Below, in pieces: positions 17,758 through 24,286 of a stretch of 24,635 bases of DNA (the stretch's first letter is position 1; each line of letters begins with the position of its first letter). Origin of the DNA: Candidatus Iainarchaeum sp. (GTDB taxonomy: Archaea > Iainarchaeota > Iainarchaeia > Iainarchaeales > JAFCCJ01). The notes beneath the pieces are model-generated. The model did no database searches, was not told the DNA's origin, and saw only the letters and a list, made by a program, of their open reading frames with translations. Where the stretch lies: NCBI GenBank assembly GCA_043816965.1, contig JBDRHK010000026.1, positions 1 through 24,635 of the forward strand. Direction: 5' to 3'. Made by a program: the position numbers and the translations under genes.

Positions 17758-17867
17758 CGGACCCGGGCGGATTTGAACCGCCGACCTACTGCTAACACCC
17801 CTTTTTCATTAACCATTTTGAAAAAGGTTAGAAGGCAGTTGCCCTATCCAGACTAGGCTACGGGTCC
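17758..17867 (-). tRNA. tRNA-Arg(UCU) with 35-nt intron at 37/38 (17794-17828)
   Basis: Acceptor GGACCCG/CGGGTCC-G, anticodon arm ACTGC-CT-TCT-A|A-GCAGT, T arm GGCGG-TTCAAAT-CCGCC, intron stem CCTTTTTCA/TGAAAAAGG. No encoded CCA. Upstream TTTAAATA. Confidence 0.95.
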
Positions 17868-20674: not shown

Positions 20675-21358
20675 TTATTTTTTATTCCTTAATCGTTCCA
20701 GCACTTTTTCACTTTCCAGTTCCCGCAAGGCATCTGCCGCAATCCATCTTGCCGCCTTTGAATCAATTTCACTGATTTCTTTCCCAACCTTAACTGCTTT
20801 TTTGTTCAGCGCAAGATTCCTTTTCCCAATTTGCCTCAGCGCCCAGTTCACAGCCTTCTTCACAAAATTCCTTTCATCGGTTGCTTCCCTCTTAATTACC
20901 GGAAAAAACTTCTCAAATTTTTTATCACCTGCTTCCTTATCATGCACTGAAAGAGTTGCCATCAGAACAAAACCCGCGCGCTTAACAAATTCCTCCCCTC
21001 TCTCACTCCATTCAAAAGCTTTTGCATATGCAAATTCAGTTTTGTCGAAAAGATTGCTGCAGCACTGGTCCACTATATCCCAGGAATCAAAATCCCTAAC
21101 CCATTTTTCCATCAGTTTCTCAGTAACCTTCTCAGGCTCACCAATAAAAGTCGCGAGCATCCTTGCCTCATGAATTCCGGTTTCCCATAATTCCTCGGCA
21201 AGTTTTTGGTCCTTGCCAATCTCTTTTCCAAAGGGCCTTAACACATAGAGGGAAATTCCCAATGCGTTTTTGGTCTCAATCCCAAAACGCGCCATCCCTT
21301 CTTTGTTCTTTTTGGAGCCCATTTTTTTGAGTTTTTTGATAACTTCATCAGCATTCAT
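20675..21358 (-). CDS. DNA alkylation repair enzyme (AlkD-like)
   Basis: LAEELW...HEARMLA, FDSWDIVD, FVKRAG, DERNFVKKAVNWALRQIGKR. Confidence 0.9.
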   Translation of the reverse strand: MNADEVIKKLKKMGSKKNKEGMARFGIETKNALGISLYVLRPFGKEIGKDQKLAEELWETGIHEARMLATFIGEPEKVTEKLMEKWVRDFDSWDIVDQCCSNLFDKTEFAYAKAFEWSERGEEFVKRAGFVLMATLSVHDKEAGDKKFEKFFPVIKREATDERNFVKKAVNWALRQIGKRNLALNKKAVKVGKEISEIDSKAARWIAADALRELESEKVLERLRNKK

Positions 21359-21361
21359 TCA

Positions 21362-22903
21362 TCAAATTCTTCTAACAACACCCTTAAAAGCGTCAACCTC
21401 AACCATGTCCCCGTCTTTAAGCAGCGAGGTGGCGTTTTTCGTGCCAATGATCCCCGGAATTCCAAACTCGCGGGAAACAATCGCAGCATGGCATGTGATT
21501 CCTCCCTCATCCGTAACTATTGCCCCCGCTTTCTCAATAATTTCAGTCAAATCAATAGTAGTCATAGGCGCAACAAGTATATCTCCTCTGTTGAATTTAA
21601 CCCCATCCTGCTTGGTTTTGATTATTTTGACTGTTCCCACCACTTTTCCCTTGTTTGCTATGCTGCCACTAATTGTCTCAATTTCTTCAACCTCTTTTTT
21701 AGTGGCCCTTTCAATCGCTTCCCTATCATCAGCTGAAAAAACTGACATCTTCCTGTTGAAAAGGAAAATCCCATACCATTCCAGCCTCTGATGCGCTAAA
21801 TTTTTGTCAATTTCAGCGCCATCAAAAAAAGAATCTATCTCCGGCTTTATGAAAAAATGAAATTCCTGAATTGTTATATCAAACAGCCTGCAGATTTCCT
21901 CAACCAGGTTCAGGGCATAATACTCCGCCGCAAAAGAGGCCTCAAGCTGGAATGTGTGTAGGTAAAGCAGTTCCTGGAGCGCTTCCATATAAACCAGAAG
22001 CTCGCCATCAACCCCAAGTTCCTTAACAATCGCATTAAAATCCTTATTTCTCGTGGCCTTATTTTCCTCCAGATCACTTAACTTTTTTTCACAGTCCTGC
22101 CCAACAGCCTTTTTAATTCTCGCAATATAATCCTCGGCGCTCATTGCTTCCCTTGCCCAGGTAAATCTGGTGCTCCAGCCATATTCCTTAACAAGGAAAT
22201 CCAATTCGTGGGAAATCTCAGAAAATTTTTCCCTAATTTTTGCCTCAATCTCTTTTTCATTCTCTTCAAAAACTTTTATTAACTTCTCATCATTTTTAAC
22301 CATGACAGCTATTTCAAGAATTTTTCGGCTCTCCAGCACAACCAAAGAATCATCTGAAGGAAAAACAACCTTGTCAAGGTATCTGTCAAACTCCGTCTCC
22401 ATGCCTCTTGATTTCAGCAATTCTAAAAGTTTTTCTGAAACCAGTGATTCAAGGACACGGTTGAAATTGTGCTTCAGCTGGATAAAAGAAACAGAATCAA
22501 CCAATGCTTGCCAGTAGTAATCAAACAGATACCGCAAAGCCTGTTTGTCCATTCCCCTAATATTCTTTCTCCCACCAATCTCCTTTGCCTTCCTTATCAG
22601 TTCCTCACTGTGGTGCCTGAGGCGCCTGTTTATTTCAGTAAAAGCAGATGGATTCTGTGAGCCCAATTCTCCCAAATCATTCCTAATTCTCTTGTAATCT
22701 GCAGGGCTCCAATAATAGCTTTCCCCTATTTTTTTGAAGTTCTCAAACTCAAAACGAAATGAGGTCAGATTCTCCAGCCTTTCAGCAGGATGTTGGCAAT
22801 CAATAACCAAGTAAGACCATAGAAGCGGATATTCGCCATGGCGTGTAAGGAAAACTTCCCAATCAACCTTGCGGTCCAGATCTAGAACCTGTTCCAAATC
22901 CAT
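21362..22903 (-). CDS. PEP-utilising enzyme mobile (phospho-His swivel) domain protein with helical N-terminal region
   Basis: C-terminal GDILVAPMTT...AIVTDEGGITCHAAIVSREFGIP...VEVDA. No ATP-grasp domain seen. Confidence 0.85.
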   Translation of the reverse strand: MDLEQVLDLDRKVDWEVFLTRHGEYPLLWSYLVIDCQHPAERLENLTSFRFEFENFKKIGESYYWSPADYKRIRNDLGELGSQNPSAFTEINRRLRHHSEELIRKAKEIGGRKNIRGMDKQALRYLFDYYWQALVDSVSFIQLKHNFNRVLESLVSEKLLELLKSRGMETEFDRYLDKVVFPSDDSLVVLESRKILEIAVMVKNDEKLIKVFEENEKEIEAKIREKFSEISHELDFLVKEYGWSTRFTWAREAMSAEDYIARIKKAVGQDCEKKLSDLEENKATRNKDFNAIVKELGVDGELLVYMEALQELLYLHTFQLEASFAAEYYALNLVEEICRLFDITIQEFHFFIKPEIDSFFDGAEIDKNLAHQRLEWYGIFLFNRKMSVFSADDREAIERATKKEVEEIETISGSIANKGKVVGTVKIIKTKQDGVKFNRGDILVAPMTTIDLTEIIEKAGAIVTDEGGITCHAAIVSREFGIPGIIGTKNATSLLKDGDMVEVDAFKGVVRRI

Positions 22904-22946
22904 AAAACCATAAATAGCTCAAAGTGTTTTTATTTTAAACAAATAA

Positions 22947-22967
22947 TGCGGGAGGGAGGACTCGAAC
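22947..22967 (-). pseudogene. Isolated tRNA 3' fragment (T loop to discriminator, Leu-like), possible att site
   Basis: Minus strand reads GTTCGAGT-CCTCC-CTCCCGC-A, 18/21 identical to the 3' end of tRNA-Leu at 24266-24286. No 5' portion nearby. Confidence 0.8.
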
Positions 22968-22971
22968 TTTC

Positions 22972-23121
22972 ACCACCTCCAATAGAGAATTTTTTCTTAG
23001 GACTCTGATTTTCTCGGCTTAAACCTTTGCACGTTTAATTCCTAATTTTGGTGCAAAGAATTTAATGCCTCCAAAATCAGCAGAGACGTCCACGAAAAAA
23101 TTCATTCTTTTTGGAGGTGGT
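22972..23121. repeat. ~150-nt rod-like imperfect hairpin
   Basis: Nested stems: 22972-82/23111-21 (11 bp), 22987-96/23094-103 (10 bp), GGAC/GTCC, 23005-12/23073-80 (8 bp), GGC/GCC, TTAAA/TTTAA, 23025-32/23051-58 (8 bp). Confidence 0.9.
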
Positions 23122-23124
23122 TTA

Positions 23125-23256
23125 ATGAAAAGTTTTTTCGATTTTCAGATTCCCTCAAGGGAAGAGATTGAATCTTGTCTGAAATCTTCAAAAAATCCAG
23201 AGATTCTTACGGATAGGGATTTTTGGATTTTGAGGGAGTTTGGAGGGGAGTTTTAA
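23125..23256 (+). CDS. Micro-ORF A, 43 aa (MKSFFDFQIPSREE...REFGGEF)
   Basis: Strong GGAGGTGG RBS, and TAATG stop/start coupling to the next ORF. Confidence 0.55.
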   Translation: MKSFFDFQIPSREEIESCLKSSKNPEILTDRDFWILREFGGEF

Positions 23257-23408
23257 TGAACTTCCCTTTTTTTCTTGTGATCAATTATTTTTGTTTTTCG
23301 TCCTTATTCGTGCTTTTTGGTTATGGCTTCCAAGAAGAGGCGAGAACTTTTGCAAAATATTTGTTTGCGTTTTTCTTCGGGATGCTGGTAATGGAGTTGA
23401 TAACGTGA
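23256..23408 (+). CDS. Micro-ORF B, 50 aa Phe-rich protein with two predicted TM helices
   Basis: GGAGGGG RBS, TAATG overlap, hydrophobic-charged-hydrophobic pattern. Confidence 0.55.
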   Translation: MNFPFFLVINYFCFSSLFVLFGYGFQEEARTFAKYLFAFFFGMLVMELIT

Positions 23409-23431
23409 AATCCGCACCGGAAATCCACTCT

Positions 23432-23449
23432 AGAAAGCCTTTATCTATT
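23432..23449 (+). promoter_or_regulatory. BRE/TATA-like promoter for the LAGLIDADG-tRNA-Leu unit
   Basis: AGAAAGCCTTTATCTATT shares AGAAAGCCTTTA with the leuS promoter and lies ~28 nt before ATG 23468. Confidence 0.6.
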
Positions 23450-23467
23450 GAAAAAGAAAAAATATGT

Positions 23468-24238
23468 ATGGAATTTACTGAAAAGCATGCGGAGCTGGTT
23501 GGGTTGCATTTTGGGGACGGCAGCTTAATAAGACGAAAAGGGACAGAAAGGCTGAGATTCCAGTTGAGGGGAGACGCAATTTCAGATAGGGCGCATTATG
23601 AGAATTTTATCATCCCTCTCTGCAATGAACTGATAGGCTTTCCCATACTTGGAAGACCGGTAACAACGACTTATTACAAAAAGCGCAACTGTTTTGGAGT
23701 TGCAGTCGAGAGTGCTCAATTGGCAGGATTCTTTGAAAAACTTGGCGTAAAGGTGGGAAGAAAGGAGGAACTGGAGATCCCTGAGTGGATAAAAAATGAT
23801 GAAAATTTCTCCAAGGCATTTGTAAGGGGCTTGTTTGATACAGACGGGTGCATTTATTATGGCACTAACCATACTGCAAAGAGCAACTTACATATTGTTG
23901 GGAGAATAATTATCACCTCCACCTCAAAAAACCTGATGCATGGCGTTTCAGCAATCCTGTCGAAAATAAGGCTAAAGCATTCAATCAAAGAACGCAGAAA
24001 GACCAATGGCGAAAAAAATGTTTTCGTTGTCGAGGTCCAAAGGCCCCATGAAAAAAAATTTATGTCATTGATAGGCTCCCATAACCAAAAACATCTGAAT
24101 AAATTCAAAATAGCCCAAATATTCGGTTTTTGCCCTCCCTATACAACCCCGCTGGAACGGAGGAAAATATTAAAAGGTGAATTGAATCCATTGTCTTTAT
24201 ACGCGAGGGTACCGAAGCGGTCTAACGGGCAAGGTTGA
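23468..24238 (+). CDS. Free-standing two-motif LAGLIDADG (intein/DOD-like) homing endonuclease, 256 aa, overlapping tRNA-Leu
   Basis: Motif 1 AELVGLHFGDGSL, block KVGRK...IPEWI, motif 2 AFVRGLFDTDGCI. No intein splicing termini. Stop TGA at 24236-24238 lies in the tRNA anticodon loop. Confidence 0.9.
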   Translation: MEFTEKHAELVGLHFGDGSLIRRKGTERLRFQLRGDAISDRAHYENFIIPLCNELIGFPILGRPVTTTYYKKRNCFGVAVESAQLAGFFEKLGVKVGRKEELEIPEWIKNDENFSKAFVRGLFDTDGCIYYGTNHTAKSNLHIVGRIIITSTSKNLMHGVSAILSKIRLKHSIKERRKTNGEKNVFVVEVQRPHEKKFMSLIGSHNQKHLNKFKIAQIFGFCPPYTTPLERRKILKGELNPLSLYARVPKRSNGQG

Positions 24239-24286
24239 GGGCCTTGTGGCTTAGTGCCTTCGGGGGTTCGAATCCTCCCCCTCGCA
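24203..24286 (+). tRNA. tRNA-Leu(GAG), 84 nt, long variable arm, no intron, no encoded CCA
   Basis: Acceptor GCGAGGG/CCCTCGC-A, anticodon arm CAAGG-TT-GAG-GG-CCTTG, variable arm GGC-TTAGT-GCC, T arm GGGGG-TTCGAAT-CCTCC. Confidence 0.97.

Follow-up and report, generated by a model that had tools for sequence, protein, structure and literature searches.

Hairpins that sequester a ribosome-binding site (RBS) and carry an embedded late promoter control the phage homing endonuclease genes I-TevI, I-TevII, I-TevIII, segB and mobE, according to the available portion of one account (PMC2988022). Likewise, hairpins precede 15 of the 16 free-standing endonuclease genes of "fractured genes", as given in the accessible part of the report on them (Dassa et al. 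2009, PMC2677866). Here we describe a hairpin in a similar position in an archaeal chromosome. It is a 150-nucleotide (nt) bulged rod at positions 22972-23121 of a 24,635-nt stretch of Candidatus Iainarchaeum sp. (assembly GCA_043816965.1, contig JBDRHK010000026.1, forward strand). The whole of this stretch is referred to as the window, and the hairpin as the rod; the source assembly measures 1.34 Mb and is 86% complete. At the 5' end of a mobile, free-standing LAGLIDADG homing endonuclease cassette, the rod forms a conserved leader. The cassette consists of the rod, a leader open reading frame (ORF), sometimes a hydrophobic ORF, and an endonuclease gene, and it lies against a tRNA gene. A literature search, into which subscription journals mostly did not fall, returned no description of the rod or of leaders of archaeal endonuclease genes.

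Structure of the rod

The rod was analyzed together with its homologues at 41 oriented loci, each extending about 1.5 kb to either side of the hairpin. Its parts in the window, with their conservation among these copies, are as follows.

22972-23121, forward strand: rod hairpin, the conserved leader of the cassette, 150 nt, recognized by folding against shuffled sequences, by the covariance model R1 and by covariation
22972-22982, forward strand: 5' arm of the outer stem, ACCACCTCCAA; CCTCC lies within the first 14 nt of 34 of the 41 copies
22987-22996, forward strand: T6 tract GAATTTTTTC, whose partner GAAAAAATTC at 23094-23103 forms a T6 tract on the reverse strand; nearly invariant in the consensus of the 41 copies
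23054-23069, forward strand: TATA-like box preceded by a purine-rich box, CAAAGAATTTAATGCC in the window; a candidate weak internal promoter, picked out by its conservation
23111-23121, forward strand: TTGGAGGTGGT, both the 3' arm of the outer stem and the Shine-Dalgarno sequence for the micro-ORF A that follows; GGAGGTG lies within the last 14 nt of 38 of the 41 copies

The fold is far more stable than that of shuffled sequence. As RNA, the forward strand reaches -55.6 kcal/mol, compared with -26.6 +/- 3.4 for 200 dinucleotide shuffles (z -8.43), and the reverse strand reaches -59.1 kcal/mol (z -7.89). With DNA parameters the value is -35.5 (z -7.70). In each case, none of the 200 shuffles folded as well. 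An initial annotation of the window had described this stretch as a rod-shaped hairpin of seven nested stems, composed of Watson-Crick pairs that can form on either strand, and its coordinates and pairing are correct. The stretch folds as one single bulged rod, at a z of about -8 for either strand, and each of the 52 pairs modelled is Watson-Crick in the window copy. Seven stems is a fair count: the minimum-energy fold contains 6 to 8 helical segments, and the exact figure varies with the treatment of bulges.

The outer stem comprises 11 bp and joins ACCACCTCCAA to TTGGAGGTGGT, as the same annotation had pointed out in noting that the RBS of micro-ORF A is paired. This arrangement is general: GGAGG is present within the last 14 nt of the rod in 40 of the 41 copies, where the basal stem pairs it. 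Micro-ORF A begins with the ATG at 23125, 4 nt past the last paired base. The 5' arm spells the anti-Shine-Dalgarno sequence expected in the tail of 16S rRNA; a 16S 3' end, sought in this assembly as a check, was not found there.

Further features of the rod are also widely shared. A run of at least five T is found in the 5' half, and a run of at least five A in the 3' half, of 40 of the 41 copies each. Within the TATA-like box, TTTAATG is invariant in an alignment of 17 copies and at least 90% conserved over the 41. Among the segments that do not change in the 41-copy consensus are GAATTTTTTC and its partner GAAAAAATTC, as well as GGCTTAAA and its partner TTTAA-T-GCC, along with a 3x3 pyrimidine loop. 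The apical loop varies freely, in its length and in its sequence.

Conservation and distribution

Eight copies of the rod are present in the source assembly, with 79-100% identity over 150 nt. A BLAST-type search detected the rod in 12 of 41 related genomes, the source genome included. A covariance model (R1) was built from 17 copies; the window rod is its best match, at 178 bits. R1 matched 56 of 151 genomes of the same order, often at several loci per genome; of the 53 high-quality genomes, it matched 17. The 16 matches in the source genome correspond to its eight loci scored on both strands. In a phylum-wide sample, R1 matched 61 of 151 genomes, all of which are labelled as belonging to the same order, and none of the 11 genomes of five other families.

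The pairing has been preserved during the divergence of these copies. In an alignment of the 41 copies fitted to R1, which provides 2123 pair cells over 52 pairs, 92.4% of the cells hold standard pairs. These comprise 1911 Watson-Crick and 50 G-U pairs, and the remainder are 39 A-C and 123 other mismatches. Changes on both sides of a pair are seen in 37 of the 52 pairs (165 cells), and none of 500 shuffles reached any such value. When the 3' partner was slid by 1-3 columns, no more than 56% of cells were paired and the covariation score did not exceed 0.067, compared with 0.238 for the actual structure. An independent MAFFT alignment of 17 copies agrees, with two-sided changes in 19 of the 52 pairs and 90.6% of cells paired. 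Covariation extends to the base of the rod: pair 2:188 is C-G in 26 copies and U-A in 12, which indicates that the 5' arm tracks changes adjoining the Shine-Dalgarno sequence.

The rod is absent from Rfam. There was no match over the rod at the gathering score, nor at E<=1 in eight loci, and a match to MIR2933 (E 0.28) falls in the ORF A region and is at chance level. The rod is widespread and uncatalogued, and a probable control element. This bears out the proposal in the initial annotation of a conserved and structured element that is new to the catalogues, whose homologues keep the pairing through compensatory changes. That annotation had also suggested that tolerance of G-U pairs would point to RNA and strict Watson-Crick pairing to DNA. 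The outcome is strict Watson-Crick pairing, which is compatible with a role at the level of DNA or of both strands.

To the left of the rod, the neighboring ORFs are co-directional at 25 loci and divergent at 15, and most of the divergent ones start tens to hundreds of nt away. A weakly conserved motif of a T run and an A run, TTTTTT-C-AAAA-TCTC, lies 15-20 nt left of the rod in many loci (e.g. L048, L049, L043, L002, L032), and could be the terminator of the upstream host gene. A run of at least five T occurs within 40 nt upstream of the rod in 18 of the 41 loci.

Leader ORF and cargo of the cassette

The rod is followed at a nearly fixed distance by coding sequence. In the window, the downstream elements, and the tRNA sequences that bound them, are as follows.

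22941-22967, reverse strand: tRNA-Leu stub, comprising the 3' acceptor strand, the T stem and a portion of the T loop, which breaks off after ...CGAAC; identified by sequence matches
23125-23256, forward strand: micro-ORF A, a conserved leader ORF of 43 codons with a predicted two-helix small protein product
23256-23408, forward strand: micro-ORF B, a hydrophobic ORF of 50 codons whose ATG overlaps the stop codon of ORF A (TAATG)
23405-24238, forward strand: LAGLIDADG homing endonuclease gene, from its match to Pfam LAGLIDADG_3
24203-24286, forward strand: tRNA-Leu(GAG) gene, called by ARAGORN and by the Rfam tRNA model at 49.9 bits

An ORF start adjoins the 3' end of the rod at all 41 loci. 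At 39 of these it belongs to a leader ORF of 32-61 codons, which starts 4-8 nt past the end of the rod in 38 cases and 1 nt inside it in one. At the other two loci, a long ORF begins directly at the rod end. Three groups of leader ORFs can be told apart: two are related (PxxEEI...LTDRELWIL...GGDF and similar), and the third differs from them (RGNPFxDGFS). Each group is under purifying selection: the median ratios of nonsynonymous to synonymous substitution rates (dN/dS) are 0.30, 0.36 and 0.33, and the ratio is below 1 in all 85, 38 and 28 pairs compared, respectively.

The product of ORF A resembles no characterized protein in the databases searched. Its AlphaFold model consists of two helices, with a predicted local distance difference test (pLDDT) score of 82.7. 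The model has no match in the PDB (best Foldseek E 2.0), and the sequence belongs to no Pfam family. A profile search gathered 104 clusters of similar small proteins, every named one of which is annotated as "hypothetical"; their records are labelled Diapherotrites, "ainarchaeum", Micrarchaeota or "archaeon".

In most loci, the leader ORF is coupled to what follows. The next ORF starts between -10 and +11 nt from the leader ORF stop in 33 of the 39 loci, in the form of ATGA, TAATG or GTGA. The chain in the window runs from ORF A (23125-23256) to ORF B (23256-23408) and on to the endonuclease. The latter probably starts at the GTG at 23405, which overlaps the stop codon of ORF B (GTGA); its first ATG is at 23465. 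ORF B is an optional link. Its homologues lie between leader ORF and endonuclease after six of the 41 leaders (L001, L008, L010/L037, L011/L033 and L013, with a remnant in L006), are strongly hydrophobic and share the pattern GF.EE....AKYL.AFF.GML..EL. ORF B has no match in Pfam.

The cassette gene is, by predicted domain, a LAGLIDADG homing endonuclease. The window ORF (23405-24235) matches PF14528 (LAGLIDADG_3) at E 1e-10, or 8.5e-11 in another Pfam search, and two stretches resembling the LAGLIDADG motif can be seen by eye in its translation. It is 74% identical at the protein level to its orthologue in a genome of the same genus (G001). LAGLIDADG_3 is found in five of the six large ORFs of the source genome and, at E<=0.001, in 12 of the 28 large ORFs of other genomes, 11 of which are at or above the Pfam cut-off. 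Several of the remaining large ORFs carry LAGLIDADG-like motifs recognized by eye only.

Not all cargo is of this type. At locus L026 (G021:C13, oriented positions 1787-2387), the rod and a short leader ORF precede a MazE-antitoxin and PemK(MazF)-toxin pair (Pfam E 2.7e-11 and 1.1e-32). This pair behind a single leader suggests that the module serves selfish or toxic genes and is portable to another class of selfish gene. At one exceptional locus, an unrelated ORF with an Lcl domain follows a decayed leader ORF. In addition, the cassette copy at L002 (G000:C15:56207-59361) is situated after a LonB fragment with an intein-like end.

The large ORFs of L002, L004, L006, L043, L048 and others encode otherwise unrelated endonucleases that share a motif within their first 15-25 residues. 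It reads (S/T)GNPL.Q..YK...KQ or FPHRKPTP..YK..KQ, and at L031 the motif and the leader ORF share one reading frame.

Insertion at tRNA genes

The cassettes are insertions at tRNA genes. In the window, the last 36 nt of the endonuclease ORF overlap tRNA-Leu(GAG). A tRNA gene, on either strand, is present at the end of the endonuclease ORF in at least 17 of the 41 loci, a count that is a lower bound given that the loci end 1.5 kb past the rod. The adjoining tRNAs have many identities, including Leu, Ile, Val, Arg, Thr, Pro, Gly and Asn, among others.

Comparison with G001 reveals the insertions directly. This genome has only one rod and retains empty sites for two cassettes of the source genome, which shows that the rod is part of an integrated mobile element, as the initial annotation had suggested. 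At the tRNA-Ile site, about 1.19 kb is inserted exactly at the tRNA 3' end relative to the empty site, with no target-site duplication. At the tRNA-Val site, the insertion is flanked by a 10-19-nt duplicate of the tRNA 3' end. The T arm on the cassette side (L003 2770-2874, compared with G001:C73) has been replaced and still pairs, having changed from GGCGG/CCGCC to GAGAG/CTCTC. The rest of the cassette-linked tRNA-Val is nearly unchanged, apart from a G-U pair in the acceptor stem relative to the cassette-free allele. The duplicated tRNA end and the replaced T arm are the traces that homing with co-conversion leaves. From its sequence, the swap at tRNA-Val looks like co-conversion to a tRNA that is predicted to resist cleavage and to remain functional.

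The window cassette itself is shared with G001, where the cassette, tRNA-Leu(GAG) and the HIT gene that follows are syntenic with 79% identity over 1279 nt. Relative to G001, the source genome has an extra 2.27 kb to the left of the rod (about 20700-22968 of the window). This segment carries a DNA-alkylation-repair gene and a gene with a phosphoenolpyruvate (PEP)-utiliser domain, and ends in the tRNA-Leu stub. The stub is an inverted copy of the 3' end of tRNA-Leu(GAG), with 24 of 27 bases matching (22941-22967). A complete tRNA-Leu gene elsewhere in G001, on G001:C84, has a 3' end with 100% identity to the 23 nt at 22945-22967. The tRNA fragment that the initial annotation had noticed beside the rod is hence real, and is a tRNA-Leu stub broken in the T loop. 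Stubs of tRNA genes are located 4-25 nt from the base of the rod at four of the 41 loci by BLAST (L001, L006, L045 and L049), and two more were recognized by eye (L003 and L051).

A reading of the rod and stub as a split tRNA, or as a tRNA with a giant intron, was considered and rejected: the 5' part of that tRNA is lacking upstream on the reverse strand, the stub has only an incomplete T stem, and G001 has a complete orthologue at another place. A bulge-helix-bulge splice motif was also considered around a 4-bp helix, where the loops, judged by eye, are 3x2 and 1x7 and non-canonical.

A second tRNA gene, which contains an intron, is found in the window at 17758-17867 on the reverse strand, and is called as tRNA-Arg by ARAGORN when introns are allowed. 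The tRNA finders disagree on the window: Rfam at the gathering score returned only 17758-17867 and missed tRNA-Leu, and ARAGORN with default settings returned only tRNA-Leu. Both genes were recovered with other settings.

Expression of the cassette

We consider it probable that the rod works in cis to lock the expression of a selfish endonuclease cassette and to insulate it. Three observations together point to a lock on translation of the cassette: the Shine-Dalgarno sequence lies in the basal stem, the stem covaries beside it, and the ORFs that follow are coupled in a chain. A transcript that arrives from the host side with both arms would fold, such that the strong Shine-Dalgarno sequence of the leader ORF would be buried in the 11-bp basal stem. 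Because each downstream ORF starts on the preceding stop codon, the whole chain (ORF A, ORF B and endonuclease in the window) would depend on this single RBS.

The rod may also insulate the cassette at the level of transcription. Oligo-T tracts terminate archaeal RNA polymerase, and the T6 tracts on the two strands of the rod would stop polymerase arriving from either side. Low expression could then be provided by transcripts that start inside the rod, at the weak TATA-like box in the 3' arm, and that would lack the 5' arm. The predicted fold of a transcript that begins in the 3' arm is unremarkable (z +0.56). Breathing of the stem may be an alternative source of low expression. Opening of the rod by ribosomes that finish an upstream ORF was considered and rejected, as the distance from the end of a co-directional upstream ORF to the rod ranges from 8 to several hundred nt, and no such ORF enters it.

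We infer repression by the rod, termination at its T tracts, the internal promoter and RNA as the level of action from sequence features. With respect to the statement in the initial annotation that the hairpin locks up the RBS, what stands as an observation is the Shine-Dalgarno sequence in the paired 3' arm, and the repression implied by the word "locks" is a prediction.

Several results weigh against an expression lock of this kind. Wobble pairs are not favored in the alignment (G-U 50, A-C 39), whereas an RNA that acts on one strand should accept G-U much more readily than A-C. The reverse-strand RNA folds more stably than the forward strand in 34 of the 41 copies, with medians of -60.4 and -55.6 kcal/mol (Wilcoxon p 7e-5, which is overstated since the copies are related). 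Of 833 long ORFs called crudely in the genome, only 122 are preceded by a Shine-Dalgarno-like 5-mer. Moreover, efficient termination at the T6 tract of the 5' arm would make the full hairpin RNA rare.

The evidence from promoters is likewise unfavorable. A promoter matrix was built from 30 tRNA upstream regions of the source genome. The common form of the TATA-like box, CAAAGGATTTAATGCC, scores 5.5 bits, compared with mostly 9-14 bits for the tRNA sites; this is near the 99.5th background percentile, which is about chance for 150 AT-rich bases. The box lies 52 nt before the 3' end of the rod in about half of the copies, and the window variant is not the best-ranked forward-strand site in its own hairpin. 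Upstream of the rod there is no consistent promoter: 12 of the 41 loci have a site of at least 8 bits, at scattered distances, and about 6 are expected by chance.

Alternative explanations

The alternative that fares best is that the palindrome acts as DNA, as the end-definer or recombination point of the mobile cassette, possibly besides a role as RNA. During double-strand-break repair, the copied strand would fold at the rod, copying would stop, and the product would be joined to the other end of the cleaved tRNA gene. We regard this as unlikely, though a serious candidate. The strict Watson-Crick pairing, complete in the window copy, and the strong fold with DNA parameters are in its favor, as is the sharp left boundary of the element: homology between the source-genome copies begins 0-9 nt before the first base of the rod, and the flanks are unrelated. 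The tRNA stubs close to the rod base, and the 2.27-kb segment that is joined to the rod through such a stub, would be natural products of this process. Two truncated copies, L019 (G040:C21) and L024 (G014:C1), keep the first 57-60 nt, which correspond to the 5' arm, and break at the apex; they are consistent with breakage at the center of the palindrome. In addition, some leaders are 91-95% identical where the endonucleases behind them are 27-33% identical or cannot be aligned, which suggests that leaders have been exchanged or homogenized within the genome. For comparison, the orthologous leader in G001 matches that of the window at 86%.

Other points weigh against a role as DNA. Its bulges and internal loops are conserved and asymmetric, and no flipped form exists: each of the 41 loci has one match, whose 3' arm faces the ORF that follows. 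Translation, rather than DNA mechanics, explains why the outer stem consists of a Shine-Dalgarno sequence and its complement. There is no cassette-linked enzyme that would read a DNA hairpin, and selection for an intact regulatory rod could also give the sharp boundary. A combined role is unlikely too, in which the rod would hide the RBS and, as single-stranded DNA, would also define the cassette end during break repair. Such a role would account for the start of homology at the first base, for the strict Watson-Crick pairing on both strands and for the tRNA stubs that adjoin the rod. If true, the leader would be a portable recombination module that lets unrelated endonuclease genes swap their front ends.

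It is improbable that the functional molecule is the reverse-strand RNA, serving as an antisense regulator or as a terminator for leftward transcription that leaves the cassette. The greater stability of that strand is in line with this reading, and a run of four to six T follows the rod on the reverse strand in many loci. However, the stability gap can arise from the treatment of purine-rich loops in the energy model, and the mirror-image GGAGGTG on the left side has no ORF starting from it. The neighbors on that side include the 15 divergent ORFs alongside the 25 co-directional ones, and the divergent starts are mostly tens to hundreds of nt away.

We give little credence to the proposal that the rod is a selfish palindromic repeat, resembling a miniature inverted-repeat transposable element (MITE), that inserts before genes by itself. 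The rod is indeed multi-copy, palindromic and about 150 bp long, and one copy precedes a toxin-antitoxin pair. Its context is nonetheless too regular: a leader ORF or long ORF follows at fixed spacing in all 41 loci, no solo copy occurs among them, and homology between the source-genome copies continues for 170-200 nt past the rod before vanishing. Furthermore, the tRNA-Ile site has no target-site duplication, and the duplication at tRNA-Val is a piece of tRNA.

A leader of the type I toxin-antitoxin kind, in which the rod would lock a mok-like leader ORF coupled to a hok-like ORF B, is just as hard to credit. The initial annotation had mentioned toxin mRNA leaders, and the burial of the RBS by fold-back and the coupled hydrophobic ORF of 50 codons do recall them in the window. 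The likeness is one of analogy only, since ORF B is found in a minority of copies, after six of the 41 leaders, and the leader ORF is mostly coupled straight to the endonuclease.

Least probable of all is a single-stranded DNA (ssDNA) signal of a rolling-circle or IS200/IS605-type element, such as an origin or transposon end: dispersed copies and a bulged rod that folds on either strand would suit it, but the cassette genes are LAGLIDADG endonucleases, the other window genes are housekeeping genes, there is one rod per cassette rather than one at both ends (41 loci, about 1.5 kb either side), the empty sites show gene conversion with a duplicated tRNA end and replaced T arm rather than transposition, and no match to Y1_Tnp (PF01797) was found in the 86%-complete genome by a search that was positive for 6 of 14 known genomes as a control and did not cover Rep families separately.

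The initial annotation had left the choice between an ssDNA-level signal of an integrated element and a new cis-regulatory or non-coding RNA. The second half of this choice has fared better: the rod is a new conserved element in a mobile cassette, for which a lock acting in cis is favored, and the half of a rolling-circle or ssDNA element has largely fallen, given that no Y1/HUH transposase was found in the 86%-complete genome, that the cargo is LAGLIDADG and that there is a single rod per cassette.

Implications and comparison with known systems

A homing endonuclease endangers its host, and phages keep their own in check by hairpins that hide the RBS; the rod suggests that the same logic operates in cellular archaea. 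Up to about a dozen copies are carried by DPANN genomes of 1 Mb, tied to insertions that rewrite the ends of tRNA genes. A search for the rod can serve to pick out selfish cassettes of a large class in DPANN genomes, and these cassettes may partly explain the disrupted, duplicated and rearranged tRNA genes of these lineages. It is also a candidate archaeal element of translational control that can be tested with simple reporters.

Two groups of known elements share parts of this design. In integron attC sites and the subterminal hairpins of IS200/IS605 elements, imperfect palindromes with conserved bulges stand at the boundary of a mobile cassette, and pairing partly outweighs sequence. In contrast, the rod has no linked integrase or HUH enzyme, is located 5' rather than 3' of the gene, is dispersed rather than arrayed, and contains an RBS. 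In the mRNAs of type I toxins of the hok/mok type, and in the 5' stem-loop of IS200 tnpA, the RBS of a leader ORF or harmful gene is hidden by fold-back. The rod cassette differs from these in having no known antisense RNA or transposase, and in that its hydrophobic ORF is optional.

Closer parallels are offered by the free-standing endonuclease genes of phages and phage-like DNA. The "fractured genes" resemble the present system in that their endonuclease cassettes are also free-standing and have a conserved hairpin within the 5' untranslated region. They differ in encoding Vsr-like or GIY-YIG enzymes, in their origin from marine phage-like DNA and in their short hairpins, and the available portion of that report makes no mention of a leader ORF (PMC2677866). 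T4 SegB is likewise a free-standing endonuclease gene; it lies in a tRNA cluster, targets that region and is listed as hairpin-regulated in the accessible part of its source (PMC2988022). It belongs to the GIY-YIG type and to a phage, whereas the rod cassettes encode LAGLIDADG enzymes beside single chromosomal tRNA genes of several identities.

The nearest of the known systems are the T4-type hairpins of I-TevI, I-TevII, I-TevIII, segB and Aeh1 mobE, which, as far as the available text describes them, also stand just upstream of a selfish endonuclease gene with the Shine-Dalgarno sequence in the stem (PMC2988022). A promoter inside the hairpin is proposed there to give transcripts without the 5' arm, a function for which the candidate box of the rod reaches only 5.5 bits. 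Compared with these phage-borne hairpins, the rod is chromosomal and archaeal and, at about 150 nt and 52 pairs, far longer. It carries T tracts on both strands, and the start that it would lock is that of a leader ORF coupled to the endonuclease instead of the endonuclease itself. In addition, a single sequence family of rods is common to very different endonucleases in dozens of genomes. The best reading of the rod is as an archaeal counterpart of the T4-type hairpins that hide the RBS.

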